Of a stretch of 64,000 nucleotides of DNA, positions 24,661 through 62,339 are shown one piece after another. Below the pieces are notes generated by a model. The model worked only from the letters and a program-made list of their open reading frames with translations, was not told the DNA's origin and ran no database searches. The position numbers and the translations under genes were made by a program. This DNA is from an uncultured Muribaculaceae bacterium (GTDB lineage Bacteria > Bacillota_I > Bacilli_A > RF39 > UBA660): NCBI GenBank assembly GCA_964533935.1, contig CAZHOG010000001.1, forward strand, positions 35,702 to 99,701, read 5' to 3'. The stretch's first letter is position 1; every line of letters begins with the position of its first letter.

Positions 24661-25956
24661 TTATAATTCATCAGCTGATATTGTAATAACTGGGCGAACT
24701 CCAAAATTATTAGGATTATAATAATATATATCATAATAAAACTTACCGTTTTTATTAATACGCCAAGCACTTGAAGTATCATAAGAAGACATAGTCCAAT
24801 ATGATGTTGAGAAAATAAACGTAGGGGCTAATGTACAAGATTCATTGCTTGAGGAACATCCTAAAGTTTCTAATTCTTCTTTTGTTATAAGACTTGCATT
24901 ATTTATTGTCGCTCCCAATAATTCTAATTTTGTTTTATATGTATTTACATATCCTTCAACTATACTTCCTGTGTAATCGCTATAATTTATTCCCTTTTTT
25001 TCATCTGTTGAAAATGCTGTTCCACCATTTCTTAAATCTTGAACAGATACATATCCTAACATTGTGCTATCTTGTATTCCAGTTGCTTCAGCCCCATAAG
25101 CAGTATAAGTACTTGTCGAATTATCATACGTTCCGCCAACATACAAATTATATTGAGCTAATGCTTTAATATTCGTACCATCATTTGATATAACATAAAA
25201 ACTTTCTGTATCAAAAGTAATTAAATCACCAATATCAGCAATTCCATTGTTATTTTCATCATTTGTTAATTTCCATGATTTATTTAAAATACTTGAACTT
25301 GTTGTTGAAGTAACTAATATTTTTGCTTCAAAATTTTGATTCATTGTAGAAGGATCTTCAACAGATTCATCTACCCATAAATATAGAGCATATGACTTAG
25401 ATTCTCCTGCTTTAACTGCCAATGTATTATCTTCATTCATAGTAGCTGCTTTTAAGCTTCCTGTTGTCAAAATATAAGAGTTTGCAATCGTAAATGTATT
25501 ATTGTTTGCATCAGTATATTCGTAATTAGTATAATCATCATATTTTTTTTGCGAAGAAACCAATGATGGGCCAGTAACATTATTTGATTCATCAACTAAT
25601 TCAAAATCAATTAATGGTTCTAAAACACTTGAACCATTGGTATTTAATGTTACATTATAATTCATATCTATTGAGCAATTATTTGTAATAGATAAAGAAT
25701 AAGGTGATTTACTTAAAGCTTCTGTTTCTGTCATTGGATATGTATTTTGTAAATTAATTGAATTACCACTTTCACTTAATTGAAAAGAGAAGCATCCTGA
25801 ATTAATTTCATTTGTATCAGTTTGACTATAATTTTTTTGCCAATAAGCATATGTAATGCCAGTAATTAATACTGCTACTAATAAAAATACTAAAACGCTC
25901 ATTAAAGTAATTCCAACTATATTTGTTTTCTTCATTTTTTTTATAAAGTTTTCCAT
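24661..25956 (-). CDS. Secreted protein with a TasA/camelysin-like N-terminal domain and a SipW-cognate-type signal peptide (paralog A)
   Basis: The N-terminal TM segment is followed by GITYAYWQKN. This parallels the TasA/CalY GGTWAAFND motif and the SipW-cognate consensus. The protein is Ser/Thr/Asn-rich and extracellular. Its C-terminal Cys-containing domain (LGCSSSNESC ... TSSAWRINKNGK) is shared with the gene at 53239..54132. Confidence 0.55.
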   Translation of the reverse strand: MENFIKKMKKTNIVGITLMSVLVFLLVAVLITGITYAYWQKNYSQTDTNEINSGCFSFQLSESGNSINLQNTYPMTETEALSKSPYSLSITNNCSIDMNYNVTLNTNGSSVLEPLIDFELVDESNNVTGPSLVSSQKKYDDYTNYEYTDANNNTFTIANSYILTTGSLKAATMNEDNTLAVKAGESKSYALYLWVDESVEDPSTMNQNFEAKILVTSTTSSSILNKSWKLTNDENNNGIADIGDLITFDTESFYVISNDGTNIKALAQYNLYVGGTYDNSTSTYTAYGAEATGIQDSTMLGYVSVQDLRNGGTAFSTDEKKGINYSDYTGSIVEGYVNTYKTKLELLGATINNASLITKEELETLGCSSSNESCTLAPTFIFSTSYWTMSSYDTSSAWRINKNGKFYYDIYYYNPNNFGVRPVITISADEL

Positions 25957-26002
25957 GTGATTGCCACCTCTACTATATATTTATAATTATACAAAATATA
26001 AA

Positions 26003-26033
26003 TAAAAAAGACAATGAAATAATTATTCATTGC
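26003..26033 (-). terminator. Rho-independent terminator downstream of ruvB
   Basis: On the minus strand CAATGAA-(7-nt loop)-TTCATTG is followed by TCTTTTTTATTT. A sigma-A-like promoter follows before the TasA-like gene: TTGTCT, a 17-nt spacer, then TATAAT at 25986-25991. Confidence 0.45.
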
Positions 26034-27024
26034 CTTTAAAATCTAATCCTAAATGTTTATATGATTTTTCACAAGCTACTCTACCTCTTTGAGTTCTTTT
26101 AACAAATCCTTCTTGTAATAAAAATGGTTCTACGACATCCTCTATAGTTGTTTCTTCTTCACCAATAGAAGTTGCAATAGTTTGAACACCAACAGGACCA
26201 CCATTAAATTTATTGATTAATGCTAATAAATATTCTTTATCAATTTGATCTAAGCCTTCATCATCAACTTTTAATCTTTTTAACGATTCTAGAGTAATAT
26301 CTTTTGTAATTATAGACCCATTTTCTACTAAAGCAAAATCTCTTACACGTTTAAATAATCTATTAGCTATTCTAGGCGTTTTACGACTTCTTCTTGCAAG
26401 TTCTAATACTGCATCATCTTCAATAGGCATATTTAAAACTCTACTTGTACGTTTAATAATATCTCCTAATTCTTCAACACTATAATAATTAAGCTTAGAA
26501 ACTATTCCAAATCTATCTCGCAAAGGTGCTGAAATATCCCCAGATCTAGTAGTAGCTCCTACAAGAGTAAATGGTGGTAAATCTATTTTTAAGCTTCTAC
26601 TTTTGCCATCTGTACCAATAATAATATCCAATTCAAAATCTTCCATAGCGGGATATAATATTTCTTCAATATATCTTGGCATACGGTGTATTTCATCAAT
26701 AAATAATACATCTCCTGGTTCAAGATTAGATAATATAGCTGCTAAATCTCCTGGTTTTTCAATTGAAGGTCCACTTGCAGTTTTAATATCACTACCAAGT
26801 TCATTGGCAATAATATGAGCTAGTGTTGTTTTTCCTAAACCAGGAGGACCATATAATAAAACATGATCTAATACTTCATCACGCATCTTGCATGCTTTAA
26901 TAAATACTCTAATATTTTCTTTAACTTCTGTTTGGCCAACATATTCATCTAAATATTCTGGTCTAATATTAGAATCTAAAGTATCAGTAATCAATTCTTC
27001 TTGATCAATTATTCTTTCTTCCAT
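26023..27024 (-). CDS. ruvB: Holliday junction branch migration helicase RuvB
   Basis: It has the AAA+ motifs ([19 protein letters not shown], sensor regions) and RuvB-specific C-terminal domains. Confidence 0.95.
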
Positions 27025-27034
27025 AAAATTCTCC

Positions 27035-27595
27035 TTATTTTAATAATAATTTAAAAGCTTCTTTAATTTGATCTTCTAATTTTTTAGATTCATCAATTTT
27101 AGGTAAAATCTTTTTGATATCACCACTTTTATAACCCAAAGCTTCAAGTGCTTCAATTAATTCAGTAAAATCACTACCAGTGGATTCACTATTAGATGCT
27201 AATTTTCCTTTTAAATCTAATATTATTTGTCTTGCTAATTTTTCACCAATCTTTGGGAATTTTGTTAAATACAAAATATTTTCTCGATCTATTGCATCTA
27301 TTATACCTTCAACTGACCCTGTAGCAAGCATTGGCATAGCTACTTTAGGTCCTAATCCTTTAACATTGATTAATTTTAAAAACAAATTTTTTTCTTCAGA
27401 AGATTTAAATCCATATAAACTAAATTCATCTTCTCTTATGTGAGAATATAAATAAACAGTTGCATCTTTATCTTTTTCATATCTAAATGGATTAGCAACA
27501 AATATTTGATAACCAATATTATTATTATCAACTACTACATAATTGCTTCCAATCTCAGTAATTATTCCTTTTATATAATTAAACATTATTATCAC
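27035..27595 (-). CDS. ruvA: Holliday junction DNA-binding protein RuvA
   Basis: It is 186 aa with an OB domain I, HhH domain II (GLGPKVA) and domain III. It is immediately upstream of ruvB. Confidence 0.9.
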
Positions 27596-27654
27596 ATCCT
27601 AATTAATAATAGCACATGAAACTTTGTTCGTCAATTTTTAAATAAAAAAGAAGA

Positions 27655-28635
27655 TTACTTATCTCCTTCTTCTAACATAGTAGTAATAAATAAACCATAG
27701 CCTGTTTTAACTTTATCAACTACAACATGCGTTACTACACCACATATTTTATCATTTTGAACAATTGGGCTGCCTGACATTCCCTGAACAATTCCACCAG
27801 TTTCATTCAATAGTTTTTCATCAGTTATTTCAAAGCTTAAATTTTTTACTTTACTATTTTTATTTATCTTTGTAATATTTATTTCAAATTTTTCTTTATT
27901 TGTATCATTTAATACAGTATAAATATATGCCTTTCCCAATGAAATTTCATCTTTAGATGCAACCTCTATTAAACTTGAAGTATCTATTTCGCTTTTATAA
28001 TCACCAAATATACCATAAATAGTATTTTTATTTATAGTACCAAATTTATTTTTAGAATTAAATTTAGCATTTTTTTCTCCTGGACTTCCATCAATTGATT
28101 TATCAATACCTGTTATTGAACTCTCAAATATGTAACCAGTTTTTACTTCAATTCTTTTATTTGAATTACTTTCTATTATCTCATGTCCCAAACTTCCATA
28201 TATTTTCGTTTCAGGATCAATATATGAAATTGTACCAATTCCTTTGATATTATCTTTAACATATAAACCAGTTTTATAAATTCCGTTTTCACTATATAAA
28301 TGTAGTGTTGAAGTGATTTCTTCATCATTTCTTTTTATAATCAGCTCTATTTTATTATCTATTATATTTTTTTCTATAGCATTTGTAAGTTCATTTATAG
28401 AACTAATTTTTGTATCTCCAACTTGAGTAATTAAGTCCCCTACTTTTAATTCATTACTCCCTTTATTTAAAGTACCATTAACTTTATAAAATCCAATAAT
28501 TATAACCCCATTGTTTTCTATATTTATACCTATATTTTGGCCACCTAAAACTACTTTACTAGAATATGCAAAGACATTAAAAGGCAACAATAATGCCACA
28601 AATAATGAGACTATTTTATACTTAATATTTTTCAT
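27655..28635 (-). CDS. SpoIVB-like S55 serine peptidase with a PDZ domain
   Basis: It has a signal peptide, a PDZ-like region (VGDLITQVGDTKI) and the catalytic-serine motif GGIVQGMSGSPIVQN..CGVVTHV. That motif is typical of the sporulation peptidase SpoIVB. Confidence 0.65.
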   Translation of the reverse strand: MKNIKYKIVSLFVALLLPFNVFAYSSKVVLGGQNIGINIENNGVIIIGFYKVNGTLNKGSNELKVGDLITQVGDTKISSINELTNAIEKNIIDNKIELIIKRNDEEITSTLHLYSENGIYKTGLYVKDNIKGIGTISYIDPETKIYGSLGHEIIESNSNKRIEVKTGYIFESSITGIDKSIDGSPGEKNAKFNSKNKFGTINKNTIYGIFGDYKSEIDTSSLIEVASKDEISLGKAYIYTVLNDTNKEKFEINITKINKNSKVKNLSFEITDEKLLNETGGIVQGMSGSPIVQNDKICGVVTHVVVDKVKTGYGLFITTMLEEGDK

Positions 28636-28710
28636 ACTACCACCTATTACTATTATGTGTATATCTATTTAATATATAATTTGTAATAATTGGCATAAAA
28701 AAATCAACCT

Positions 28711-30024
28711 TTATTTGGTTAATTTTCTAGCATCATCTAATTGTTTAAAATATGTATTTCTTCTTAATTTATTTAAAGCTGAGCTTTCAATTTGTCTTAT
28801 TCTTTCTCGAGTAACACCCATCATACTGCCAATTTCTTCCAATGTATAAACTCGTCCATCATAAAATCCCATTCTATAAAATACTATTTTAAATTCTCTT
28901 TCATTTAAAATTGATTTTAAAGCTTCTACTGTTTGAACTGATGATAAATTATCTAATGCAGTTTTTTCAACGTTTATTGGAGATTCAATAAAATCTTCTA
29001 AGCAAACCTTATCATTGTGTTCTTCTGACACTACTGAATTTAAAGACACCATATCATTTTGATATTTATTTATAATTTCAATATCTTTTATTGAAAAACC
29101 AGTCAATTTGGAAAGCTCTTCGAGTGATGGTTGACGATTATTTTCAGAAACAAATTTAAATACAATAGCTTTTAACTTAACTGTTTTCGATTGTAAGTGT
29201 ACTGGTTTTCTAATTGTTGCACAAAAATTATAATAATATCTACCTACATAGTGTTCAATCCAATTAACAGCATAAGTTGAAAACTTAAAACCTAATTTAT
29301 AATTAAAGCTTTTTATTGCTCTTTCTAATCCAAAATATCCTTCTTGAATAACATCATCTAATTCAATCTTGCTTTTTCCTTGAGGGTTTATACGCTTGTA
29401 ATAAAAATTAGAAGCAATAAATCTAACTAAAGGAAGATTTTTTTCAATAATAATGCTTTTGTATTCTTCATAATTATTTGAATCTTTTTCTAAAGCTTCA
29501 AATAATTTTTGCTCTTCAGCAAAGGTTAATGTAGAAACTTTTGAAATGGATTGATCATCAGTTTCAACTATTTCAATATTATTTTTATCTAAATACAAAG
29601 TAATAATTGTTTTAAAATTAACATCTTCACCATAAAATGAATCAATATAATCAGATTTAACTGCTTTTTTATTACCAACTACTTTTTCTAAAAACATATT
29701 AAATTTAGGCAAATTCATTATTACATTTGCTTCTTCTAAAGAAAGTTCATATTCATAACGATTTAAAAAAGAAAAAAATTGAATAAATTTACTTGCTAAT
29801 GTAGTAGCAGTAGCTTCACCATCAAATGGAATAGACTCGAATTGTTTAATTATTATAGGTAATGATAAATTATTCTTTAAATATATATTTACTGCTTTAT
29901 GTACACCAGCTTTTGTTAATTCTTTTTTCGGTATAGAATTATATACTTTTTTTAAATCACTTTCATTCTCAAAATAGTTTGCGTAACTCTGTAATGCTTC
30001 TTTATATGACATTGTTTCATTCAT
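28711..30024 (-). CDS. Sigma-70 family RNA polymerase sigma factor with a ~190-aa N-terminal extension
   Basis: Region 2 is present (DVIQEGYFGLERAIKSFNYKLGFKFSTYAVNWIEHY) and so is region 4 ([30 protein letters not shown]). The first ~190 aa do not resemble sigma regions. Confidence 0.7.
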   Translation of the reverse strand: MNETMSYKEALQSYANYFENESDLKKVYNSIPKKELTKAGVHKAVNIYLKNNLSLPIIIKQFESIPFDGEATATTLASKFIQFFSFLNRYEYELSLEEANVIMNLPKFNMFLEKVVGNKKAVKSDYIDSFYGEDVNFKTIITLYLDKNNIEIVETDDQSISKVSTLTFAEEQKLFEALEKDSNNYEEYKSIIIEKNLPLVRFIASNFYYKRINPQGKSKIELDDVIQEGYFGLERAIKSFNYKLGFKFSTYAVNWIEHYVGRYYYNFCATIRKPVHLQSKTVKLKAIVFKFVSENNRQPSLEELSKLTGFSIKDIEIINKYQNDMVSLNSVVSEEHNDKVCLEDFIESPINVEKTALDNLSSVQTVEALKSILNEREFKIVFYRMGFYDGRVYTLEEIGSMMGVTRERIRQIESSALNKLRRNTYFKQLDDARKLTK

Positions 30025-30100
30025 GTTTTCACCCCATCAAATTAGGAAATATTGTATCTCATATGGGTATTAAAGTCAAATAAAAAATCCTATCAAGGAT

Positions 30101-31531: not shown

Positions 31532-31539
31532 AAATTCAC

Positions 31540-31767: not shown

Positions 31768-32972
31768 TCTACCTCCTTAACAATTGCTTTAATATTACCT
31801 TGATGAAATCTTACATTAATTTCATCATTAACATCTAAACTTTTACTATCTTTAATTACTTCATCGTTTTTTGATACCAGTGAATATCCCTTATCTAAAA
31901 TATTTAATGGATTAACTAATTTTAAAGTATTTGAATTTAAAATTAGCAGATGTTTTTTATTAAGTAAATAAGATTTAATAAAATTATTTAGTTTATCTAT
32001 ATTACTATCTAATTTTTGTTCTTTTACTTCATATATTGCCAATGGATTTTTTAAAATATATGATTTTTTAATATTATCTAATCTATTTTCTTTTAATTTT
32101 AATAAATTCATAATGAATTTATTATTTCTTAATTCTAATTGATTTATTTTAAAATTAACATCACTTATAGTTGGAACAGCCATTTCAGCAGCTCCAGTTG
32201 GAGTCGGTGCTCTTAAATCAGCTACATAATCAGCTATTGTAAAATCAATTTCATGTCCAACAGCACTTATTATAGGTATCTCACTATTAAATATTGCTCT
32301 AGCAACTATTTCTTCATTAAAGGCCCATAAATCTTCTATAGAACCACCACCACGGCCACAAATAATTACATCAAGATCATATTCATTGGCTTTTTTAATT
32401 TGATTAACAATATCTGGTGCTGCACTTTTTCCTTGAACTAAACAAGGAAATAAAATAGTTTCACATATTGGATATCTTCTTTTAATTGTACTAATAATAT
32501 CTTTAATAGCTGCACCAGTAGATGCAGTAATAACACCTATTTTTGTTGGATATTTTGGAATTGGCTTTTTATGAATATTATCGAACAAACCTTCAGCAGC
32601 TAACTTTTTCTTAAGTTTTTCAAATTCTAAATATAAATTACCAAGGCCATCCATTTCCATTTTATCAACATAGATTTGATATGTTCCTTGAGCCGGATAA
32701 CAAGAAACTCTTCCTTCAACTAAAACATTCATCCCATCTTCAGGAACAAAAGACAATTTAGTAGCATTACCTGCAAACATCACTGCACTTAATCTAGAAT
32801 CATCATCTTTTAAAGTAAAATATAAATGTCCTCTAGTATGATTTTTAAAATTAGAAATTTCACCTTTTAAATAAACATGTTGCAAATGTGAATTATTATC
32901 AAACATAGATTTTAAATAATTATTGATTCTTGAAATTGTAACATATTTATCTTCCATGGGACTTATCTTCAC
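31764..32972 (-). CDS. xseA: Exodeoxyribonuclease VII large subunit
   Basis: It has an N-terminal OB-fold (tRNA_anti-like) and the catalytic domain. Its position after nusB is conserved. Confidence 0.9.
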   Translation of the reverse strand: MKISPMEDKYVTISRINNYLKSMFDNNSHLQHVYLKGEISNFKNHTRGHLYFTLKDDDSRLSAVMFAGNATKLSFVPEDGMNVLVEGRVSCYPAQGTYQIYVDKMEMDGLGNLYLEFEKLKKKLAAEGLFDNIHKKPIPKYPTKIGVITASTGAAIKDIISTIKRRYPICETILFPCLVQGKSAAPDIVNQIKKANEYDLDVIICGRGGGSIEDLWAFNEEIVARAIFNSEIPIISAVGHEIDFTIADYVADLRAPTPTGAAEMAVPTISDVNFKINQLELRNNKFIMNLLKLKENRLDNIKKSYILKNPLAIYEVKEQKLDSNIDKLNNFIKSYLLNKKHLLILNSNTLKLVNPLNILDKGYSLVSKNDEVIKDSKSLDVNDEINVRFHQGNIKAIVKEVE

Positions 32973-33891
32973 TTTCTATTTTTAATTTATTTATAGCATT
33001 TGTTATTTCATTGTAATTCATTTCATAATTTCTTATTAAAGTACTCTTATACATATATGGAAAAGAAATATTTCTTTTATCTTCAATATTTAAAATAATT
33101 TCTTTTAATTTATTTGGAGTAAAGTAATAATATATATTTAAGAATTGATTAATATTTTCTCTTCCAGAAAAACTTAAATATTTTTCTATTTCAACGTTAC
33201 CGCAATATTCATTTTCAACTTTCATTTGAGGAATAAACCCCATAAAATTAAAAGACAATTCATTATCATATAATGGAGTTAATGTCGCAATATTCTTTTT
33301 GGCATTTTCCATTATTTCCCAATTTCTTTCATGTCTATCATTTTGCATAGTTAAATAATCTAGAGAATATCTTTTTGTTAATTCAACCATAATATTTTTT
33401 ACAATGTTTAGTCGATTATCTTCATCATAATTATGGAAATGATAGTTTAATGCATCCCAAATATTTTCAAGATTATTCATATCATTAATTAAATATTTTC
33501 TCAAATCATCATTTAATGGATATTTAATAACATAAGTTGGATTAATATATTCATTTATTAGCTTATTCTCTTCTAAATAATTCAAATACTCTTCTAATAT
33601 AATAGAACCATTAATGTAAGAAAAATCAGCTTGACGATAATCTTTTGTTAATGTTCCAATTTTATTATTTATTTGAGCAGCTTCAATATGAACAACATCT
33701 ATCCCAATTTCTTTGGCCATTTCTTCAACAATCATATCGTTATAAATAGATTCCATTTTATAAGAATTATCAAAGTTTTTTAACGCATTTTTAAAAAAAT
33801 ATTCTTCGCCATTTATATTAATAGTATTTTTTCTTTGAAAGAAGAACTTCTTTTTACAGTATTTACTAATATCAACAATTCCGTTTTCCAT
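32947..33891 (-). CDS. HipA-like (HipA_C-fold) putative Ser/Thr kinase, short form (paralog 1)
   Basis: It has a HipA-type substrate-binding helix motif (EEMAKEIGIDVVHIE), a catalytic-loop-like LDYLTMQNDRHERNW (D.H..N), and an APxYD-like Mg-binding motif (LTPLYDNE). It overlaps the xseA start by 26 nt. Confidence 0.4.
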   Translation of the reverse strand: MENGIVDISKYCKKKFFFQRKNTININGEEYFFKNALKNFDNSYKMESIYNDMIVEEMAKEIGIDVVHIEAAQINNKIGTLTKDYRQADFSYINGSIILEEYLNYLEENKLINEYINPTYVIKYPLNDDLRKYLINDMNNLENIWDALNYHFHNYDEDNRLNIVKNIMVELTKRYSLDYLTMQNDRHERNWEIMENAKKNIATLTPLYDNELSFNFMGFIPQMKVENEYCGNVEIEKYLSFSGRENINQFLNIYYYFTPNKLKEIILNIEDKRNISFPYMYKSTLIRNYEMNYNEITNAINKLKIESEDKSHGR

Positions 33892-33892
33892 T

Positions 33893-34288: not shown

Positions 34289-34335
34289 AATTAATCACCA
34301 AAGTAATTATACCATAATACTTAGTAAAAACATAG

Positions 34336-34367
34336 AAAAAATCGGCTTTTAAATTGCCGATTTATTT
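34336..34367 (-). terminator. Rho-independent terminator after the small ORF
   Basis: On the minus strand AAATCGGC-AATTTAAAA-GCCGATTT is followed by TTTTCTATG. Confidence 0.45.
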
Positions 34368-36811: not shown

Positions 36812-37732
36812 TTATCTTTTTAATGGTTTAAAATTATTTAATTCATTTTGTAACATATTATAATTAAATACATATTGAGAATAAATAGAATCTTTTATCT
36901 TATTATCTATTTTAAAGTTTAACTTATATTCAAGATTTATAAACATTCTTTTTACTTCCAAAGGATTTAAATAATTCATTAATCTTTCAAATTCATCTTG
37001 AAAATATGAAGATGAATAATTCAAAAATTTTTGTAATTCACTTATATTAGAATATTCTTCATTTTCATTAAATACATCAGTTCTTATATTTAAATTCTTT
37101 TCTGAATTTGTGTGAAGGCCATTTAACATTTTTTGATTATCAAAAATTGGTGCAAGTGTAGCATAATCTTCTGTTTCTTCTACTAACCAATTATATGAAG
37201 CACCATCACATTGATTAATTAATATATCAAATAAATATTTTTCCGATAATTTATATAAAATATTTTTAATAATATTCTTCTTATTAGGGTTATTTCGATA
37301 TTTAATTTCAAGTAAATCCCAGATGCTTTCAAGATTATTATATTTAGCATAATCTATTTTATCAGTTGGTTCTTCATCAAGATATCTATGATAATTTTCA
37401 ATCAAATCATCTCCTGAATAATAGTTACAATAGTCTTTTTTAAAATCTTTTGTAATTACACCATACATTCCATTAAATAATGCTAAATCATATGTTGCAT
37501 GATCATAACCAACAGTTTCTAACATTTCACTAGCTAGTAATTCTTTTATTTCTTCGTCTTTTGAACTGCACATTTTGAACATATACCTTTGATTGCCAAT
37601 AGAAAACCAGAAATTAACATCATTTATAATTTCTACTACACCCATTTTTTCCAATTTGTATACATTCATGCAATTATATTTTTCTAAAAAATAGGAATCT
37701 AAATCAATATAGCCATTATTTCTTTCAAACAT
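36812..37732 (-). CDS. HipA-like (HipA_C-fold) protein, paralog 2, with a degenerate catalytic loop
   Basis: It aligns along its whole length with the 32947..33891 product (LASEMLETVGYDHATYD; NLESIWDLLE; LAPIFDNQ). The catalytic-loop equivalent is CDGASYNW, where Asp and Asn are kept but His is replaced. Confidence 0.4.
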   Translation of the reverse strand: MFERNNGYIDLDSYFLEKYNCMNVYKLEKMGVVEIINDVNFWFSIGNQRYMFKMCSSKDEEIKELLASEMLETVGYDHATYDLALFNGMYGVITKDFKKDYCNYYSGDDLIENYHRYLDEEPTDKIDYAKYNNLESIWDLLEIKYRNNPNKKNIIKNILYKLSEKYLFDILINQCDGASYNWLVEETEDYATLAPIFDNQKMLNGLHTNSEKNLNIRTDVFNENEEYSNISELQKFLNYSSSYFQDEFERLMNYLNPLEVKRMFINLEYKLNFKIDNKIKDSIYSQYVFNYNMLQNELNNFKPLKR

Positions 37733-39252: not shown

Positions 39253-40449
39253 CTATCGTTTTAATTGACTAGAATTTATTCTAGAATATATTTGATTTAA
39301 TAAATTATCATCAGATTTATAATTATCTGATATTTTAATATGCATAGAATTATCAATTTCATTTGGATAAATTATATTATCCATGTTTTCTAATTGATAA
39401 CCAACTCTATTAAAACTTCTTATTAATTTTTGAGACATATTATTTTGGTTAAAATCTCTTTTATTTTCTAACTCTAAAATTTTATTTTTAATAGTATCGT
39501 CATCATATAAAAATTTAAAGTTTTTAAGAGCTCTTTCCGAGCCAATCTTTTTTTCATAATATCTTAATGGTAAATAATCTATTACAACAATATCTTCTAT
39601 ATCATTTGTTTTTAACATTTTAATTGTTGCAGTAATACTTAATAAAGAACTCATAGAAACATCAGAAATATTTTCTGGATAATAGTTACTCTCATTATTT
39701 TTATAATCATAATATTCCTTACTGTCTAAAATATTTTTATTAAACGAATATAACTTTCTATTTATAGATTTTTCATATCTATTTAATATTTTTTTATTAT
39801 GATTTTGAACAGCATAAATATATGCAGTTTTTCTACCATTAGCATCATCAATTCCATAGCAAACCTTTGGTAAATCAAAATAATTCATTGTAGTCCCATC
39901 ATTATGTGCTAATCGAAATTTCAAACAATATGGAGTTTCTAATGAATAATATAATGGTTCTCTTTTCATTTCTAATACAGAATCATTTAATTCTTCAATA
40001 TTACAAATATTAGAATATCTTGAATAACTTTTAAAAGTATCATCATTAATAAAATTAGTTCTCATTTTCAGGTATGCTACTGGATTATTTAAATCTTGTT
40101 CACGAGCATTAAAAAAAGCTAAAGTTAAAATATATTTAATATTTTCTCTAGAAGTTAATTCATATATGTGATTAATAAGTGATTCAGTTAAATCATGTTT
40201 TATCATTAACTTTATTTGTGAATTCACATAATCTACTAATGCATTATCAAATAAATCTTTGTTTTTAATCATCAATAATGGTAACTCATTATTTCTAATA
40301 TTACTTTTATTTTCAATAGTAGTATTAAACCCTATTGAAAATGTAGCAACATCATTATTAATTTTCTGATTACTTATTATTTCAATACTTCCATTACATG
40401 CACTTGGTACAATTTCATTATAAAATATACTTAAAATTAAATTTTTCAT
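39253..40449 (-). CDS. Hypothetical protein inserted between queA and tgt
   Basis: A 398-aa cytosolic-looking ORF with no recognised motif. Its stop and start are tightly packed between queA and tgt. Confidence 0.5.
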   Translation of the reverse strand: MKNLILSIFYNEIVPSACNGSIEIISNQKINNDVATFSIGFNTTIENKSNIRNNELPLLMIKNKDLFDNALVDYVNSQIKLMIKHDLTESLINHIYELTSRENIKYILTLAFFNAREQDLNNPVAYLKMRTNFINDDTFKSYSRYSNICNIEELNDSVLEMKREPLYYSLETPYCLKFRLAHNDGTTMNYFDLPKVCYGIDDANGRKTAYIYAVQNHNKKILNRYEKSINRKLYSFNKNILDSKEYYDYKNNESNYYPENISDVSMSSLLSITATIKMLKTNDIEDIVVIDYLPLRYYEKKIGSERALKNFKFLYDDDTIKNKILELENKRDFNQNNMSQKLIRSFNRVGYQLENMDNIIYPNEIDNSMHIKISDNYKSDDNLLNQIYSRINSSQLKR

Positions 40450-49064: not shown

Positions 49065-49535
49065 TCACTTTTTTAATTTAATTTGCACACATTTTACACA
49101 TTTAACGATTAATTGTTGATTTTTATCACGCTTATCACACGTTATTAAATATAAAAGATCCTTTTCTTCCTTTTCTAAATTCATATAGCCATTCTTTTTT
49201 ATATAATACTTTTTTGCTACCAAATACTTTATCTTTCTATTGTTAATAATTAATGTGACTTTATCATTAATATTAATCAAATCTAAATTCTTAAAAAAAG
49301 AAATCTTTGAGTTTCCTGAATGCGCAGCCAAGAAATATAAATCATTAATATAATCACTCTCTTTTAATAAAATAATATTTTTATTAATTGAAGAATATTT
49401 ATATGAAACAATAATTTGTTTTAAACCAATACTTTCGATTATTACTTCATTATTATACGTTACATTATTTTGACTTTGATAGTATGAAGTAAAGTTTAAA
49501 ACTAATCCAATAATTAAAATTATAATTTTTTTCAT
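49065..49535 (-). CDS. Compact sortase-like membrane-anchored protein (putative transpeptidase)
   Basis: It has an N-terminal TM anchor, a His-motif-like YFLAAHSGNS and an active-site-like LYLITCD (the TLxTC motif). It is short for a sortase (156 aa), and the conserved Arg position is unclear. Confidence 0.35.
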   Translation of the reverse strand: MKKIIILIIGLVLNFTSYYQSQNNVTYNNEVIIESIGLKQIIVSYKYSSINKNIILLKESDYINDLYFLAAHSGNSKISFFKNLDLININDKVTLIINNRKIKYLVAKKYYIKKNGYMNLEKEEKDLLYLITCDKRDKNQQLIVKCVKCVQIKLKK

Positions 49536-53179: not shown

Positions 53180-53238
53180 TTTATCACCATAAATATTATA
53201 TCATGAAGTAAATAAAAAAGAAAATATATACATATTTT

Positions 53239-54473
53239 CTATAGTTTATTTATTTCAATCAAAGCTTTACCAAATGTTGTATTACCACAATTATTATTGT
53301 AATATCCATCACACCCTGAAAGGTTTGGAGCTAATCTATTACTTTTATCTATTCTCCAAGCACTTGTAGTATCAGTAGATTTAGCATTCATTGTCCATAT
53401 ATTTTCTCCATTATTTATCCATTTTGGACAACTATCAGCTGTTTCACTACATCCTAATTTAGCTGCTTCTTGGACAGTAATAATTCTTGCTAAAACATTA
53501 TTTTTTTCAAGATTATAAGTGTTACTTGAACAAATATTATAATTTGAACAACCCGTATATTTATTAGTTGCAAATACTGTAGTACCCATGTTGTATGACA
53601 TTGCATTAACATTACTCCAAGAAGATGTACTAGACTCTATTGCATTTAAAACTCCATAAGGCCCATTTGCAGTACTTGAATTATTAACATTTGACCATGA
53701 AACATTACTAGTAGTATTTTCAATTTGCTGAATTCTCATTGTCTCACCATCATCAAATAAAACATTAAAAGCTTTTTCGGCATTTTCATTTACTTCATAA
53801 AGAATAATTGTACCAGCTTTACAGCTATTAGCATCAAGATTACGATAGCATTTAGTTACTTCACATGTTTCTTCACTACCATTAACACAATAAGTACTAG
53901 ACGTGCTATCGTCATTGTAATTATATGCTGCTACTATATTTTTATTTTTAACAGCTACTTTATCAGCACTTTCATTATCTATTCCTAAAGTTCCTTCAAA
54001 ACTACATCCTTGACTATTTTGTTCTTCATCTTTATTAACAAATGTTATCTCCATTGAATAATTTTCTATGGTATTTGCTGGAATATCTAATTCATATAAA
54101 ATATATGTTCTTCCATCTTTCGTAACTGGCATTTTTCTCGTGCCAGTGATTAAATCTTCACCATTTTTATAGTATATACCAAATCATCATTAAATGTATT
54201 TATTATCCCATCAATATAAATATTAAATTTCATATCAATGTTATTAGTATTTTCTACACTAAATGTTTTAATAAATGATTGACCAGGTAGTATTCCTTCA
54301 ACATCTATTTCAGCCTCTCCTGTAAAAACTAATTCTAAGTTCCCGGCTTTAACAATAGTTTTAGTTTTATTAATTTCTTGAATTTTTGCAGTAAAATACG
54401 AAAAAGTAACTCCTAAAGCAATAACTAAAAATATAACAATAATTGATAAAGCAGTAATAATTTTTTTACTCAT
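53239..54473 (-). pseudogene. TasA/camelysin-like secreted protein gene (paralog B) disrupted by a frameshift
   Basis: ORF 54150..54473 (signal anchor plus the TasA-like motif GVTFSYFTAKIQEINKTKTIVKAGNLELVFTG) and ORF 53239..54132 are consecutive parts of one protein in two frames. I judged this by alignment to the 60078..62339 product. The frame switch maps to the A5/T5 tract at 54164-54168. The C-terminal domain is shared with the 24661 paralog. Confidence 0.55.
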
Positions 54474-54535
54474 CTAACATCTCTCCTATTATTAATATAA
54501 TAGTTTTTTACTAATTTTGCAAGGCAAAATAAAAC

Positions 54536-56764: not shown

Positions 56765-56812
56765 ATATTATAATAATATGTTAATATATGTAACCAAGAA
56801 AAGAGGGAAAAC

Positions 56813-57745
56813 ATGAAAAGTGTGAATGAAATTGAGGAACCAATAGTTGAAAAGCTATTTAACAGTTATAAATATAACTTAAAAAATGCAAGATTAAATG
56901 CTAATGAATTACATGAATATTATAATAGCCAAGTAAATCATCATCAATTACTTACTGAAAAAATATATAATTTAAGAATAATAGATGATTCAAAATATGA
57001 GGTATTAAAACCTATTTGTTTTAATTACGAAACTAACGAATATACATTAAATATGCATTATATAGTGGTTGATTTTTACAAAAAGCATCAAGGTGAAGAG
57101 CAAATATCAATATATGAATTAAATATTCTATTATTAGAATATATTAATAAAATAATCGCTTCAGTTGAATTAAGACGTGGAATAAATAATAATATACTAT
57201 ATAAAAAAGAATCAGAGTTTTATACATATTTAGTTAATGAATACATTGATCCTAGTATTAAATCAATTGTAAGAACAAATTATAATAATATTAGAAAAAT
57301 GCAATTAACATCACATATTATTGATAAATGTACTATGGAATATGGTTTAAATCCATTTGCAAAATTAAACTATGTTCAAAAAATTAATAAGTATATTTAT
57401 AAAAAATTCTTTAATAACGAATATGAATGTCCATCTATGAATGCAAAAGAAAATGAAACTACTTTCTTTAAAATGAGTGATAAAGGATATTTTATTGATA
57501 TAAACAGAAATAAAATGAAACAAACACTTGGAAATGATGTACCTAGCAAATTCGAATATGCCGTTAATCATCAAATGAAACAAAAACCACTTCCTGATCA
57601 AAACTTATTAGATGCTTTATTATATGGAAAAATGATTAATAATGATGTTAAAAATATTATATTAAAAGATGTAATAAATAATATGTCTATAATAGATTAT
57701 GCAGAAGGAACCACTCCATCAAATAATAACATACTTGCAAAATAA
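56813..57745 (+). CDS. Hypothetical protein
   Basis: A 310-aa cytosolic-looking ORF. It is the only plus-strand gene in this 10-kb stretch. No motif was recognised. Confidence 0.4.
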   Translation: MKSVNEIEEPIVEKLFNSYKYNLKNARLNANELHEYYNSQVNHHQLLTEKIYNLRIIDDSKYEVLKPICFNYETNEYTLNMHYIVVDFYKKHQGEEQISIYELNILLLEYINKIIASVELRRGINNNILYKKESEFYTYLVNEYIDPSIKSIVRTNYNNIRKMQLTSHIIDKCTMEYGLNPFAKLNYVQKINKYIYKKFFNNEYECPSMNAKENETTFFKMSDKGYFIDINRNKMKQTLGNDVPSKFEYAVNHQMKQKPLPDQNLLDALLYGKMINNDVKNIILKDVINNMSIIDYAEGTTPSNNNILAK

Positions 57746-57767
57746 AAAGACTGAAATTCAGCCTTTT

Positions 57768-58667
57768 TTATTTTTGCTTTTTATCTTTATCAGACATTAA
57801 TTCTTTTAGAGAAACTCCTAAAGTTGCAATTCCTTGCATATCTGTAGGTACTATAATCTTTGTAGCTTGTCCATTAGCCATATTAGTTAATGCTTCAAAA
57901 CTTTTTAAAGCAAGAACTGATTGATCAGCTTTAGCATCTTTAATTAATTTAATACCTTCTGCTTCAGCTTTTTTAAGTTGTAATACAGCTTCAGCTTCAC
58001 CTTCAGCAATTTTAATTTGAGATTCTTTTTGAGCTTCTGCTCTTAGAATAGCACTTTCTTTTTCTCCTTCAGCAATTAAAATACTAGATTTCTTTTCTCC
58101 TTCAGCACGAAGAATAGATTCTCTTCTTTCACGTTCTGCACGCATTTGTTTTTCCATAGCTTCTTGAATATCTTTTGGAGGAAGAATGTTTTTAACTTCA
58201 ACACGATTAACTTTAATTCCCCATGGATCAGTAGCTTCATCTAATATTGAACGCATTTTAGAATTAATGATATCTCTTGATGTAAGAGTTTGATCTAATT
58301 CAAGTTCTCCAATAATATTACGAAGAGTTGTTGCTGTTAAATTTTCAATAGCATTTATTGGATTTTCAACTCCATAAGTAAATAATTTTGGATCAGTAAT
58401 TTGAAAATAAACTACAGTATCAATTTGCATTGTAACATTATCCATTGTAATAACTGGTTGTGGTGCAAAATCTTTTACTATTTCTTTTAAAGAAACAATA
58501 TTACTAATTCTATCAACAAATGGTATTTTAACATGTAATCCATTATTCCATGTAACAAAATAAGATCCTAATCTTTCAATAACATAACTTTTTGCTTGTG
58601 GTACTACCTTAATATTTGGAAGTACAATAATTGCAACTATAACTAATATAGATATAAAAATTTCCAT
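57768..58667 (-). CDS. SPFH/band-7 (stomatin/flotillin-like) membrane scaffold protein
   Basis: It has an N-terminal TM segment, an SPFH domain (VIERLGSY ... ) and C-terminal AEGE/AEAQ coiled-coil repeats. It is paired with an NfeD gene. Confidence 0.85.
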   Translation of the reverse strand: MEIFISILVIVAIIVLPNIKVVPQAKSYVIERLGSYFVTWNNGLHVKIPFVDRISNIVSLKEIVKDFAPQPVITMDNVTMQIDTVVYFQITDPKLFTYGVENPINAIENLTATTLRNIIGELELDQTLTSRDIINSKMRSILDEATDPWGIKVNRVEVKNILPPKDIQEAMEKQMRAERERRESILRAEGEKKSSILIAEGEKESAILRAEAQKESQIKIAEGEAEAVLQLKKAEAEGIKLIKDAKADQSVLALKSFEALTNMANGQATKIIVPTDMQGIATLGVSLKELMSDKDKKQK

Positions 58668-59093
58668 TTAATTTCCTTCTTTCTCAACAATAAGCTTTAC
58701 TCCACTTATTGCTTTAACCTTTACTTCACTATTTTTTACGATTTTTTCGTTGGCAATAGCACTCCATTTTTTTCCATCAACCTTAACTTCACCAATTGTA
58801 TTTTTATTAATTTCTTCAGTAACTATTCCCATCATTCCAATTACCCTGTCCAAATTTGTTTTATAATTTTTTGGTTTTAGGTATTTAGATAAAATTGGTC
58901 TAGTAGTTATTAATAATATTGTTCCTAAGATTACAAATACTCCGAACTGGATATAAAAACTTTCCACAAAAAATGATAAAACTAATGTAACTATTCCACT
59001 AGCAATAAACCATATTGATACTAGTCCAATAGTACATACTTCTATAATTGTAAGTGCCAAAATAATTATTAACCATACAACCCATAAATCCAT
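58668..59093 (-). CDS. NfeD-family membrane protein (short form with an OB-fold C-terminus)
   Basis: It has two or three TM helices and then a beta-rich C-terminal domain. It lies immediately upstream of the SPFH gene, with zero spacing. Confidence 0.7.
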   Translation of the reverse strand: MDLWVVWLIIILALTIIEVCTIGLVSIWFIASGIVTLVLSFFVESFYIQFGVFVILGTILLITTRPILSKYLKPKNYKTNLDRVIGMMGIVTEEINKNTIGEVKVDGKKWSAIANEKIVKNSEVKVKAISGVKLIVEKEGN

Positions 59094-59155
59094 ATACTTC
59101 TCTCCTTATGTTCATTATACTAAAATGTATTTAAAAAGCAATAAAATATTCATAT

Positions 59156-60013
59156 TTATTGCCTTTTTAAAGTTAATTTATTTTTATTCTTATAGAAATT
59201 CTTTTTACTAGAAATTTCTTCTATTAATGATTTGATTAAAACACTTTTATTTTTATTTTTAATTACTATATTTAAATATTTATCTCCAAATTTATAACTA
59301 GCTTGAGTATAACAAATAATACTATACATAAGCATTATAATATTCTTATTTTCTTCATCTATTTCTAATTTATTGCAATATTCATCCAATGATAAATTTT
59401 CTTTTGAGGCTTTTTCTATTAATGAATAAATAATTTCTATATTAAAATGATCAAAAACGTCAAAATCAAAATTATCTTCTTCAAAATCAAATGTTTCTTT
59501 TCTATTTAATTCTGATGTTCTAGAAATTTCATTTAATATTCCAGAAAAATCATATGGTTTTTCAGTATTTTTAGAAATCATATCTGCTAATTGAAAAAAC
59601 TGATAAGCATTATCATTATCACCAATATAATAATAACAAAATGCAATACTTGCACAAATGTATGCATTTGGTTTATTAAAGAAAGAAAATATTTTAAGAT
59701 ATCCATCTAAAGCCTTTTTATAATTCTTTTTATAAAATAAAATATTAGATTCTTTATAAATTTTTGATGCCAAATTTCTATCTTCAACTATTTCATTATA
59801 TTTCAAAACAATCTTTTTATTAGTTCCATCATCAATGGTAAAAGCATTGATATTATCCTTTTCATGAGCAACTTTATAGAATAATTTTCTGTCTTTAGTA
59901 TTTTTTGCTTCAAATAATATAAAACTTTTATTATCTATTATATATTCACAACAACTATCAAAAAAATCCATATTTTCCATGCAATCACTTCTCTCGTAGA
60001 AAATATAATACAA
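59156..60013 (-). CDS. Hypothetical protein (possible TPR-like helical repeats)
   Basis: A 285-aa ORF with no confident motif. The central region has TPR-like Tyr/Ala spacing (KALDGYLKIFSFFNKPNAYICASIAFCYYYIGDNDNAYQFF). Confidence 0.35.
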   Translation of the reverse strand: MYYIFYERSDCMENMDFFDSCCEYIIDNKSFILFEAKNTKDRKLFYKVAHEKDNINAFTIDDGTNKKIVLKYNEIVEDRNLASKIYKESNILFYKKNYKKALDGYLKIFSFFNKPNAYICASIAFCYYYIGDNDNAYQFFQLADMISKNTEKPYDFSGILNEISRTSELNRKETFDFEEDNFDFDVFDHFNIEIIYSLIEKASKENLSLDEYCNKLEIDEENKNIIMLMYSIICYTQASYKFGDKYLNIVIKNKNKSVLIKSLIEEISSKKNFYKNKNKLTLKRQ

Positions 60014-60077
60014 TATTTACATTGTACATTGCAAGAAAAAAAGAATAGATTATATCTATTCTTTTAAAAGCATATTT

Positions 60078-62339
60078 CTATTCCCATGTAAATATTGGAT
60101 ATCCGTTATTTACATTATTACTATCATTTTTGAAAGCTGATCCCAATGTTGCGGATATTTTTTTCATATTTTCATTTGATGTTGAACCGACAGAATTTTT
60201 TGTAGGAGTTACAGCGTATTGAGTACTAGAATTTAAATAATAATTATTATTTATATTAACGGATTTAATAGTATTCCCCTGTAATCCTAATATTGCACCA
60301 ACATATTGATTATTAACTTCAGAAACATTTCCAACATTATAATTATTATATAAACTTAATGCCATTCCAGCATCATTATCAAAATTTGCAACTATTCCTC
60401 CAGCATCCATACCAGATGCAGTTATACTTCCCATATTATAATTATTATATATTTTTACTAATGAATCTCCTGGATTGTTCCACATATTTGCAACTATTCC
60501 AGCAATATGACCGTACCCAGAAATTTCGCCAACATTTTTATTTTCATAAACATTTAAAGTTTCAGTTAACGTACTTATATTGGCTATTATTCCCCCACAT
60601 CCGTAATTATTTGAATTTGAAATACTAATTGTTTTCTTATTTATATTTTTATTAACATTTATATTTTTTGAAGCAAAAATTCCACTTATTATACCTGAAG
60701 CTCCAGAATTCTTAGCAACTATTATTCCATTATTTATATTTTGACTAACAGTTACTGAATTAGCATTATTTATATATGCAAGTATTCCTGAAGAATATTG
60801 ATTATTAGCAGTAATTTTAGCATTATTAACATTATTTTTCATAGTTAAATTAGAAATATTAATATTATATGCTAAAATTCCACTCGCAAAAGTATTTGCT
60901 ATAATTTCACCATTATTTGTGCAATTCTCTATTAAAACATTATCTGAATTATTACTGTTTGCAACTATTCCACTTGCAGTATTTGCTTCACTTTTGATTA
61001 CTGCATTGTTAATTGAATTTCTAATAATAGAATTAGTTCCAGCATACCATACTAATCCTGCCGCATCATCTCCTGAAGTTTTTACTGAAATATTATTAGT
61101 ACAATTTTCAATTGTTCCATATAGTTTTTGAACAAGACCAGCAGAAGTTTTACTTGCTGTTATTTCACCATCAATTGTTAAATTTTTTATAACAGATTTG
61201 TTATCTATAGATGTAAAAAATGCTTGAGCTGAAGAATCAGGTTTGTTTATATAGATTCCACTAATTTTTTTATTATTTCCATCAAATATTCCACTATAAT
61301 TTTCAATTGGTACCCATTGGTTTGAATTTGAACCGTTTAAATTAATATCATTTATTAATTTAACATTAACTGAATTATTAGTTTTTATTTTTTCTTTAAA
61401 CCAATTGATATCATTTATACCTCTAATTTCATAAATATTATTATTAGAAACAGGTTCTAAATATTTTAAATCAGCCATTATCTTTAAATAAAAATTATTA
61501 TTTGCTAACAATTTAATGTTATCAGAATTAGCTTGCCTTTCATTATTCATAATGGTAATTTCATATGTATCATTTTCATCCGCTTTTAATAGTTGACTTT
61601 TTATAAAATAATCATCATTTATATTTTGATTTTCTAAAATGGTCAATCCATTTTTTGATAAATTATACGTTAAATTATTCCCATATTCATTTTCAATACT
61701 TCCAAATTTAAGATTATAAATTTTATCTTGATTAGTTACATTTGAAACTTCAAAAGATACGTTTTTAGAATTGCCACTAGTAAAATTTGAAATTGAAATT
61801 TCATCAGATGATACCACTATAGAATTAATTTTTTTAGTATCAACGCCTAAAGTTGCACTAAATATTTTACCTTGTAAATTATTTTGATCAGTATCACTAT
61901 TTTTAAATGTTATTTTTAATATATATGACTTAATTTTCCCCGCCTCAATAGTAATATTTGTATTAATATAAGTTTTTCCAGTAACACTATTTGGCGTCTT
62001 TCTCTCAGATATTATTTTTCCAGTTTCATCAGCTAATTCATATACTAAATCTTCATTAAATTCATTTGTAATATTTTCCATATAGATATTATAATCTACT
62101 GCTATATTACTTGTATTCTCTACTGTAAATGTTTTAGTAAATGAATCTCCAGGAACTATTCCAGATACATTTATTTCTTGTCCACCTGTATATGTTAAAG
62201 TTAATTTATTTGTTTTAACTACTGTTTGTGACTCATTTATTCTATTTACATTGGCACTATAGAATGCATATGTTACACCCGCTACAAGAGCTACTACTAC
62301 AAATATACTTGCTACTATTAATACTATTTTTTTCTTCAT
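60078..62339 (-). CDS. Large secreted protein with a TasA/camelysin-like N-terminal domain and a long array of GLUG repeats (beta-helix) (paralog C)
   Basis: Its N-terminus (VALVAGVTYAFYSANVNRINESQTVVKTNKLTLTYTGGQEINVSGIVPGDSFTKTFTVENTSNIAVDYNIY) parallels the TasA signal and mature N-terminus (GGTWAAFND ... NLKPGDKLTKDFQFENNGSLAIK). Residues ~380-700 hold repeated ~22-aa units ending in xSGI(V/L)A or AGGIVAN, which is the GLUG motif. Confidence 0.6.
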   Translation of the reverse strand: MKKKIVLIVASIFVVVALVAGVTYAFYSANVNRINESQTVVKTNKLTLTYTGGQEINVSGIVPGDSFTKTFTVENTSNIAVDYNIYMENITNEFNEDLVYELADETGKIISERKTPNSVTGKTYINTNITIEAGKIKSYILKITFKNSDTDQNNLQGKIFSATLGVDTKKINSIVVSSDEISISNFTSGNSKNVSFEVSNVTNQDKIYNLKFGSIENEYGNNLTYNLSKNGLTILENQNINDDYFIKSQLLKADENDTYEITIMNNERQANSDNIKLLANNNFYLKIMADLKYLEPVSNNNIYEIRGINDINWFKEKIKTNNSVNVKLINDINLNGSNSNQWVPIENYSGIFDGNNKKISGIYINKPDSSAQAFFTSIDNKSVIKNLTIDGEITASKTSAGLVQKLYGTIENCTNNISVKTSGDDAAGLVWYAGTNSIIRNSINNAVIKSEANTASGIVANSNNSDNVLIENCTNNGEIIANTFASGILAYNINISNLTMKNNVNNAKITANNQYSSGILAYINNANSVTVSQNINNGIIVAKNSGASGIISGIFASKNINVNKNINKKTISISNSNNYGCGGIIANISTLTETLNVYENKNVGEISGYGHIAGIVANMWNNPGDSLVKIYNNYNMGSITASGMDAGGIVANFDNDAGMALSLYNNYNVGNVSEVNNQYVGAILGLQGNTIKSVNINNNYYLNSSTQYAVTPTKNSVGSTSNENMKKISATLGSAFKNDSNNVNNGYPIFTWE

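Follow-up and report, generated by a model that had tools for sequence, protein, structure and literature searches.

Proteins of the TasA family are known as single-domain subunits of biofilm fibres in Bacillus, Clostridium and archaea. Bacillus subtilis TasA is cleaved by SipW; its mature chain starts at residue 28, the first eleven residues form the donor strand, and F29, I32 and F39 are the donor-strand hydrophobic residues that become buried in the next subunits (PMC9674648). TapA is a minor subunit that joins this donor-strand fibre (PMC9674648). In Clostridium perfringens, the donor strand of BsaA is held in place by an intermolecular isopeptide bond that an N35-E56-K74 triad forms, and the BsaA family is reported to include Coprobacillaceae members (PMC11580942). 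Here, a 64,000-nucleotide stretch of contig CAZHOG010000001.1 from an uncultured gut bacterium (GenBank assembly GCA_964533935.1, positions 35,702 to 99,701; hereafter the window) was analysed for three minus-strand genes, named p1, p2 and p3, whose products carry a TasA-type module at the N-terminus (the N-module, or handle) followed by differing C-terminal parts (the cargo). The module itself is of a known type; in a family of gut Bacilli that is large and uncharacterised, it serves as the N-terminal handle to which differing adhesin-type cargo is attached. It is reasonably probable that p1-p3 are paralogous surface proteins that join fibres through a donor-strand module while bearing different adhesin-type cargo, and that their genes are separate units at fixed positions.

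The three proteins resemble TasA (PDB 5OF1, 5OF2 and 8AUR) and Bacillus cereus CalY (camelysin) in a predicted Sec signal ending in G-x-T-aromatic-A, in an N-terminal strand with hydrophobic residues at the positions of TasA F29, I32 and F39 and in a PGD..TK.F..EN motif, and they may share a jelly-roll beta-sandwich with them. They differ from TasA, a single-domain protein of 261 amino acids (aa) encoded in tapA-sipW-tasA, in that the handle carries a further 200-580 aa of cargo, each gene stands alone with no sipW or tapA nearby, and the sequence likeness ends after about 80 residues. BsaA and BsaB, encoded in a sipW-bsaA-bsaB-bsaC operon, are likewise remote TasA homologs associated with type IV pilus genes (PMC11580942); p1-p3 have no sipW operon, and their scores with the BsaA family model TIGR04090 are far under its cutoff of 60 bits. 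By analogy, p1-p3 may be compared in concept with TapA as a multi-domain minor subunit that has one domain in the fibre and another part that is functional. Among chaperone-usher systems, the tip adhesins FimH and PapG join a donor-strand fibre by one domain and leave the other functional; in them the lectin is N-terminal and the pilin domain C-terminal, the opposite of the order in p1-p3, for which no chaperone or usher is present either.

The three genes and their shared module

The window has about 25% G+C throughout, and nearly all of its genes lie on the minus strand. The order of neighbours is ruvA-ruvB-p1-parE/gyrB-parC/gyrA, priA-p2-fmt and ileS-p3. Gene p1 (24661..25956) is an open reading frame (ORF) of 431 aa with a signal or transmembrane (TM) segment, a divergent TasA-like N-module and a predicted C-type-lectin-like cargo. 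Residues 1-37 (25846..25956) comprise a basic start, a 22-residue hydrophobic stretch and G-I-T-Y-A / Y-W, and form a putative signal peptide; residues 38-223 (25288..25845) are the N-module, modelled as a beta-sandwich; residues 236-431 (24664..25251) are the cargo, with a predicted C-type-lectin-like or Lcl_C-like fold, an LGCS..ESC motif and the ending GVRPVITIS. A protein identical to p1 (P0121) is encoded on an NCBI contig of 167,639 bp. Gene p2 (53239..54473) is frameshifted, so that an ORF of 107 aa (54150..54473) is followed by one of 297 aa (53239..54132). Gene p3 (60078..62339) is an ORF of 753 aa in which a signal and a TasA-like N-module are followed by another beta-sandwich and then by repeats. 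Its residues 1-172 (61824..62339) contain the signal (1-25, with predicted cleavage after T-Y-A25), a putative donor strand (26-45) and a beta-sandwich (48-167). The second beta-sandwich, residues 174-292 (61464..61820), was placed from the secondary structure of an AlphaFold2 (AF2) model, and residues ~300-690 (60270..61442) form about 10 repeats that are 27-34 aa long and open with (A/S)G(G)(I/L)(V/I/L)A.

The N-module of about 170-220 aa is common to all three proteins. BLAST aligned p2 with p3 over residues 1-176 at 44% identity (E 3e-42) and p1 with p3 at just 23% identity; hhalign of the p1-type profile (A3) against the p3-type profile (A1) gave a probability of 98.3% (E 1.2e-14), the 169 aligned columns spanning the entire module. 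When the window was translated in all six frames, p1, p2 and p3 alone contained the motif G-(V/I)-T-(Y/F)-(A/S)-(Y/F)-x. An earlier reading of the window from its letters alone (the sequence-only reading) had described three minus-strand genes after ruvAB, between priA and fmt and beside ileS, with an N-terminal module and this motif in common; ORF calling, BLAST and profile alignment agree with it on all of these points.

Pfam PF12389 (Peptidase_M73, TasA/camelysin) matched p2 at 25.9 bits and p3 at 32.8 bits, above the gathering threshold of 22.5, over profile positions 2-79 of 196 only. No PF12389 match was obtained for p1 in the Pfam scan; p1 is tied to the TasA-like family via the hhalign match to the p3-type module. 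Among 93 module relatives taken as family representatives, 74 match PF12389 at E <= 0.001. The NCBIfam TasA equivalog NF046066 scored 36.5 bits (E 3.5e-9) with the p3 module and did not reach its cutoff of 450 bits, and the weak TIGR04090 matches, of 22.9 bits (p2), 17.6 bits (p3 module) and 21.6 bits, with E 2.5e-3 for the p3 module, also did not reach the cutoff of that model; p1-p3 are relatives, not members, of these two subfamilies. When the A1 profile was searched against all PDB sequences, the two best matches were TasA (5of1 and 8aur), via the PGD..TK.F..EN motif, and hhalign of A1 against B. subtilis TasA gave a probability of 86% (E 5e-6), with 35% identity in an alignment of 77 columns that takes in the signal peptide. 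Two segments of the TasA sequence in this comparison were confirmed by the PDB alignment. PDB sequence searches with p1 or p3 alone returned nothing useful. AF2 models of p3 residues 1-300 and of whole p1, with predicted local distance difference test (pLDDT) values of 77.9 and 83.7, both begin with a helix, continue with some 15-20 residues of low confidence and then form a beta-sandwich. The profile matches support placing the N-modules in the TasA/CalY/BsaA (Pfam Peptidase_M73) superfamily; their beta-sandwich is predicted to be of the jelly-roll type. The TasA/camelysin assignment that had been proposed is borne out by the agreement of the PF12389, NCBIfam, PDB profile and hhalign matches; as a check on the three N-modules, PF12389 itself succeeded for p2 and p3 and failed for p1.

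Signal and putative donor strand

The N-termini of p1-p3 have charged, hydrophobic and small residues in the order of a Sec signal, with hydrophobic stretches of 18-22 residues. hhalign places p3 G21-V-T-Y-A25 on TasA G23-G-T-W-A27, and cleavage of the signals would be expected at this T-aromatic-(A/S) site. Next to it, p3 Y27, V31 and V41 align with TasA F29, I32 and F39, and the residue types at these positions (Y/F, V/I and I/V/L) are kept in the 29 module sequences of alignment A1. In that alignment N35 and K69 are invariant and E55 and E74 occur in 28 of 29 sequences; N35, K42 and L46, which lie in the low-confidence segment after the signal, vary little or not at all. Both monomer models (p3 1-300 and p1) have low pLDDT in this segment, and the same is reported for BsaA residues 28-38, a proposed donor strand, in the BsaA monomer model (PMC11580942). 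The N35/K69/E55 numbering of the p3-type module resembles the BsaA triad, a correspondence that is suggestive only.

The signals had been described as SipW-cognate-type in the sequence-only reading, and the profile scores did not bear this out: TIGR04088 (cognate_SipW) gave 13.6 bits (E 0.058) with p1 against a cutoff of 19, and no match with p2 or p3 at E <= 10. An LPXTG-like motif or C-terminal hydrophobic tail was found in none of p1, p2 and p3. A very small sortase gene in the window (49065-49535, minus strand; 156 aa, Pfam Sortase E 1.9e-10) adjoins Rnf-like genes about 3.7 kb from p2, and its substrate is not in the window, because p1-p3 have no LPXTG signal.

Cargo domains

The p1 cargo appears to be lectin-like. 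It was matched to the Thomasclavelia ramosa IgA peptidase domain (PDB 9QA6) and to the Legionella Lcl C-terminal domain (PDB 8Q4E), with which it shares just 14-17% sequence identity, and weakly to Pfam Lcl_C (PF07603; 14.7 bits, E 0.04, threshold 34.9). The 9QA6 match is ascribed to the N-terminal domain of the peptidase because a C-type-lectin-like core similar to Lcl and dispensable for catalysis is described there (PMC12237041).

The C-terminal core LITKEEL..LGCS...C....YWT....AWRI is shared by p1 and p2 at 40% identity over 70 aa, and hhalign of the p1 cargo core against p2 gave a probability of 83% (E 9e-6) over 51 columns. The C-terminal region of p2 is a Cys-rich variant with this core. 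The Cys-containing C-terminal domain that had been assigned to both proteins holds for the core and not for the whole C-terminal half. The p3 repeats are taken by us to be GLUG-type beta-helix repeats; Pfam at E <= 10 gave no match on the p3 repeat region or on the p2 C-terminal region, and one relative in the TasA-like family matches Pfam Peptidase_M26_N. The second beta-sandwich of p3 is common to the proteins P0001-P0017, which cover 35-39% of the p3 query; in none of the orthologs found did coverage of p3 exceed 39%.

Family size and cargo swapping

A HMMER scan with the module profile over 1.84 billion cluster representatives (clusters at 50% identity) returned 3,617 clusters at E <= 1e-3, of which 1,926 also had E <= 1e-10. 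In all 150 listed of the 3,617 clusters the module was N-terminal, and protein lengths were 84-5,625 aa. C-terminal domains among the 93 representatives were Flg_new, DUF285, ALK/LTK glycine-rich, DUF6273, pectate-lyase-like beta-helix and leucine-rich repeat (LRR), together with fn3, Big_2, M26_N and FGE-sulfatase, among which Flg_new, DUF285, LRR, beta-helix, fn3 and Big_2 are regarded as adhesin-type cargo; SGNH-hydrolase Pfam domains were present in three p3 homologs. The hosts seen in the genome scan were uncultured Bacilli, Erysipelotrichaceae and 'Tenericutes' gut metagenome-assembled genomes (MAGs), with one contig filed under Muribaculaceae. At least four copies are present in this genome (p1-p3 and P0192, on the same NCBI contig outside the window), at least seven loci in MAG100 and at least five in a Hadza-derived MAG, so that the expanding family of adhesin-like proteins suggested by the sequence-only reading is confirmed as an expanded set of paralogs.

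More than 400 proteins contain the p1 cargo domain, either as one copy or as tandem copies. The domain follows p1-type handles, p3-type handles (as in P0123 and P0146), type IV prepilin N-termini with Pfam N_methyl (P0168, P0189, P0208 and others) and further 'TM + GYAxL(N/S)' N-termini. P0202 combines a p1-type handle with p2-type cargo. P0126, the p1 ortholog at the same ruvB-parE locus in a related Hadza-derived MAG, has a handle 59% identical to that of p1 and an unrelated C-terminal part of about 400 aa. Handles and cargo have apparently been shuffled repeatedly, because the same cargo is found on several handle types. A search of the literature on TasA-like proteins found no discussion of such module-cargo fusions.

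Paralogs that consist of the module only, of about 170-220 aa, occur in related genomes (for example 207-219 aa in loci L013 and L016). A second small paralogous family was seen in these genomes, with a basic start, a TM segment, 'VYA..(Y)YA.D(I/V).(Y/F)' and then '(A/V)(L/I/V)(D/N)(D/E/T)LY' (L013:10618-11139; L016:4485-5330, 10687-11247 and 15350-15949; L010:13717-14685). Two of its copies lie immediately downstream of module-only TasA-like genes, and none lies in the window.

The p2 frameshift

By three-frame translation, the reading frame of p2 shifts at an A5 run (54164..54168, minus strand), where A6 would restore ...YTIKNGEDLITG... One additional A gives a continuous frame of 411 aa (...DLVYTIKNGEDLITG...) parallel to p3, with a TasA-like N-module and a Cys-rich region that ends in the lectin-like core. 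Logan assemblies SRR8925798 and SRR8925773, which are independent and from other runs, match the window with 100% identity along 10-11.5 kb and contain the same two ORFs, so the frameshift is not an artefact of one assembly. Intact p2 homologs elsewhere are 411-414 aa long with 65-73% identity. The p2 gene is a frameshifted copy in this strain and most likely a pseudogene inactivated by the frameshift; phase variation at the short A5 run is possible but unsupported.

Genomic position and transcription

The positions of p1 and p2 are kept in relatives. A Hadza-derived contig of 248,530 bp has ruvA-ruvB-P0126-parE-parC-ylbD-ylbE-pilin-ftsW-comEA-comEC, as in the window; the identity of the flanking proteins is 55-89% (ruvB and parE 89%, comEA 55%). 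A second relative has priA (80%), an intact p2 ortholog of 414 aa, fmt (79%) and a homolog of the next gene. The ruvB-parE slot is an old fixed locus for a fast-evolving gene whose cargo has been replaced in place, because the order is kept while the P0126 handle and cargo diverge. The G+C content and third-position G+C (GC3) of p1-p3 are those of their neighbours. Around p1-p3, a search for flanking direct, inverted or shared repeats and for recent duplication gave chance AT-rich matches only, and no transposase, integrase or recombinase was found in the Pfam-scanned window ORFs. The p2 and p3 genes are old paralogs, because their DNA identity is just 73% over 138 nt. These observations support p1-p3 as old, fixed residents of the genome and contradict the mobile family that had been suggested from the gene order. 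Other members elsewhere stand at inter-operon sites: after queA, before cvpA, between proS and recD2, and next to rpsD. In the window an ORF of 398 aa without a Pfam match (39253-40449, minus strand) is wedged between queA and tgt, and in MAG100 a TasA-like member follows queA (L003:5603-7411), so the queA slot varies between relatives.

Hairpins were scored by folding against shuffles, and all those given here are on the minus strand. A hairpin with a T-run lies at the end of ruvB, upstream of p1 (26004..26037; -12.2 kcal/mol, z -6.7), and is followed by an extended -10-like element, TGTATAAT (25984..25996), and a ribosome-binding site, AGAGGTGG, both by consensus match only. Further hairpins with T-runs lie after p1 (24634..24656; z -3.1), after p2 (53214..53239; z -2.8), at the end of ileS upstream of p3 (62387..62419; -13.1 kcal/mol, z -4.9) and after p3 (60036..60065; -10.2 kcal/mol, z -4.4). 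The hairpin after priA, upstream of p2, is the sole weak one among those folded. Automatic terminator prediction, which requires 3 G-C pairs, missed all of these hairpins for that reason in a genome of 25% GC. A promoter-like site stands ahead of each of p1-p3, and the ribosome-binding site is clear in p1 and p2 and weak in p3. Because hairpins bracket the genes and each has its own promoter-like site, p1-p3 appear to lie between transcription units and not within operons, with the reservation that p2 may be co-transcribed with priA. The insertion into housekeeping operons that had been proposed is therefore imprecise: p1 and p3 are themselves bracketed by terminator-like hairpins, and p2 has one downstream only.

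The intergenic region between ruvB and P0126 on the Hadza MAG contig (L026:9717-10000) is 284 bp long, compared with 66 bp in the window. In it, a unit that is comparatively rich in G+C (...ATGTTAGCCGCTTATGGATGGTGCGGGTTATAAGTGATTCC...) is repeated twice in tandem with a spacing of about 50 nt; no copy of this unit was found in the window or in the other fetched loci. The unit may regulate the adhesin gene, either as an RNA or as a site to which a protein binds; Rfam gave no match in this repeat-bearing region or in the window.

Signal peptidase and pilus genes

The sequence-only reading had seen no sipW gene in the window, and no S26 signal peptidase was found there by Pfam on 42 ORFs (all coding-strand ORFs of at least 80 aa from 20 kb onward), by a regex scan or by phmmer --max with SipW and SipS against the six-frame translation. 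By regex and phmmer, none was found in about 430 kb comprising the window and 25 loci around family members, and none was present among the called genes of loci L026-L033; a very divergent peptidase could escape these searches. A rhomboid intramembrane protease gene (L030:5189-6337), 1.7 kb upstream of the 689-aa member P0005, was the sole membrane protease seen near any family member and is probably a housekeeping gene.

Several loci bring family members together with pilus-related genes. In MAG100-like genomes, a Tad/Flp-like cluster (L010:8707-14685; two TadE-like genes, a CpaE-like ATPase, CpaF ATPase, TadB and TadC) has TasA-like members on both sides, and tadB-tadC (L033:2-1215) is directly followed by a p2-like gene and a 621-aa member. 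In MAG100 a prepilin-peptidase-like gene (L006:9096-9863; N-terminus MDIYISVILFIFGIILGSFYNVLATRLP...CVFC...CRHC) lies directly upstream of a 556-aa member. In C. perfringens, efficient secretion of BsaA oligomers needs some type IV pilus genes (PMC11580942); given this dependence and the Tad-like and prepilin-peptidase neighbours, a helper role of pilus machinery is conceivable. In the window itself, a lone PilB/GspE-type ATPase gene (7689-8981, plus strand; label from reading the translation), a 161-aa type IV pilin-like gene (18824-19309, minus strand; Pfam N_methyl, E 9e-9) and putative comEA and comEC genes, so labelled from their translations (14550-17292, minus strand), lie apart, so that pilus and competence parts are scattered and not clustered. 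None of p1-p3 matches Pfam N_methyl (PF07963), and the order of their N-terminal regions is not that of a class III prepilin.

Proposed mechanism and alternatives

In the proposed mechanism, p1-p3 would be exported by Sec, and a signal peptidase whose gene is not close by would cleave off their signals. By donor-strand exchange of the kind seen in TasA and BsaA fibres, the N-terminal strand thus freed would enter the beta-sandwich of an adjacent module, and cargo-bearing subunits would be joined to each other or to fibres of the module-only paralogs seen in related genomes, giving homo- or heteropolymers. The lectin and beta-helix domains would be displayed on the cell surface for adhesion. 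The genes themselves evolve faster than their neighbours and diversify as cargo is exchanged behind a conserved handle. Several points weigh against this. The C-terminus of TasA makes an inter-subunit contact (PMC9674648), so that a large C-terminal cargo might hinder fibre packing. Sequence likeness to TasA is limited to the first ~80 residues, and in a Foldseek search with the whole two-domain p3 model TasA was not among the top 50. The TIGR04088 score of p1 is under the cutoff, with p2 and p3 unmatched, and no module-only paralog is known in this genome. Published TasA-family genes often adjoin a signal peptidase gene (PMC12518558; PMC11580942), and no sipW or S26 peptidase lies within 10 kb of any family member examined (about 30 loci).

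The main rival, less probable but not remote, is that p1-p3 are monomeric, membrane-tethered adhesins with an uncleaved signal-anchor, in which the TasA-like sandwich is just a stalk and no fibre is formed. It is favoured by the lack of a signal peptidase near the loci examined, the sub-cutoff TIGR04088 result, the long hydrophobic stretches, the single continuous helix that residues 2-36 form in AF2, and the position of the module at the extreme N-terminus in all listed proteins, as expected of an anchor. The length of the hydrophobic stretches is matched by the equally long hydrophobic core of the TasA signal, and a stalk would not need the conserved T-aromatic-A/S motif and the TasA donor-strand hydrophobic pattern. 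N35, K42 and L46 are conserved in a segment modelled as 'disordered', and module-only paralogs would be purposeless as stalks. Were the handle just a membrane stalk, p1-p3 would belong to an ordinary lineage-specific surface-protein family. That the proteins are instead substrates or subunits of a type IV or Tad-like pilus, processed by a prepilin peptidase, is very unlikely: the p1 cargo behind prepilin N-termini, the pilus genes beside family members at L010, L033 and L006, the PilB-like ATPase and pilin in the window and the pilus dependence of BsaA secretion speak for it, but the N-termini have the Sec order and not the class III order (charged leader, G/F, E5, hydrophobic), the hhalign match to the TasA Sec signal extends over the entire signal, and wall transit through a pilus would add to the donor-strand model, not replace it.

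Recently inserted mobile or horizontally acquired cassettes that break housekeeping operons are less probable again. The gene order is unlike that of B. subtilis (ruvAB-queA-tgt and priA-def-fmt), and members occupy differing positions from MAG to MAG (after queA in L003, between proS and recD2 in L022); against this, one relative keeps ruvA-ruvB-X-parE-parC to comEC with flanks at 55-89% and another keeps priA-X-fmt with flanks at about 80%, the composition is native without flanking repeats, transposase or integrase, and the p2/p3 divergence is old. A camelysin-type metalloprotease function, for which nothing but the Pfam family name Peptidase_M73 speaks, has a negligible probability and was ruled out because p1 and p2 contain no histidine and p3, with one, has no HExxH; the peptidase label of camelysin is itself a likely misidentification (PMC11580942).

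The donor-strand reading can be carried further. If the handle still polymerises, decorated heteropolymeric fibres would result, and cargo swap at fixed loci would be a simple means of adhesin variation on a handle spread over a family of about 3,600 clusters. The ruvB-parE cargo swap, the frameshifted p2, and the lectin-like cargo that also occurs on type IV pilins and in the T. ramosa IgA peptidase are leads on the attachment of small-genome gut Firmicutes to host or mucus. More doubtful is a wider version in which the module is a universal N-terminal plug: dozens of cargoes (lectins, beta-helices, LRRs, hydrolases and giant multi-repeat adhesins) would be co-polymerised without a sipW/tapA operon, possibly aided by Tad or type IV machinery, with cargo exchanged with type IV-pilin handles. 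If true, two classes of filament that are unrelated to each other would be connected through one modular system of display on fibres.

Other genes in the window

A secreted protein of 155 aa (454-921, minus strand) has a signal peptide, a weak cadherin-like beta-sandwich match and a C-terminal TM segment, and is likely a surface protein unrelated to the TasA-like family. A sigma-70-family protein of 437 aa (28711-30024, minus strand) adjoins spoIVB and has an N-terminal extension of about 190 residues without a domain match. Together with an ORF read as spoIIP (6618-7559), it points to a spore-former despite the ~25% GC and the small-genome look. A HipA_C-like ORF (32947-33891, minus strand), weak and under the Pfam threshold, lies between xseA and nusB with a 26-nt overlap with xseA, and an unannotated ORF of 306 aa adjoining recD2 (36812-37732, minus strand) has a similar '...APIFDN...' stretch. 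These two ORFs may be divergent HipA-like kinases among housekeeping genes.

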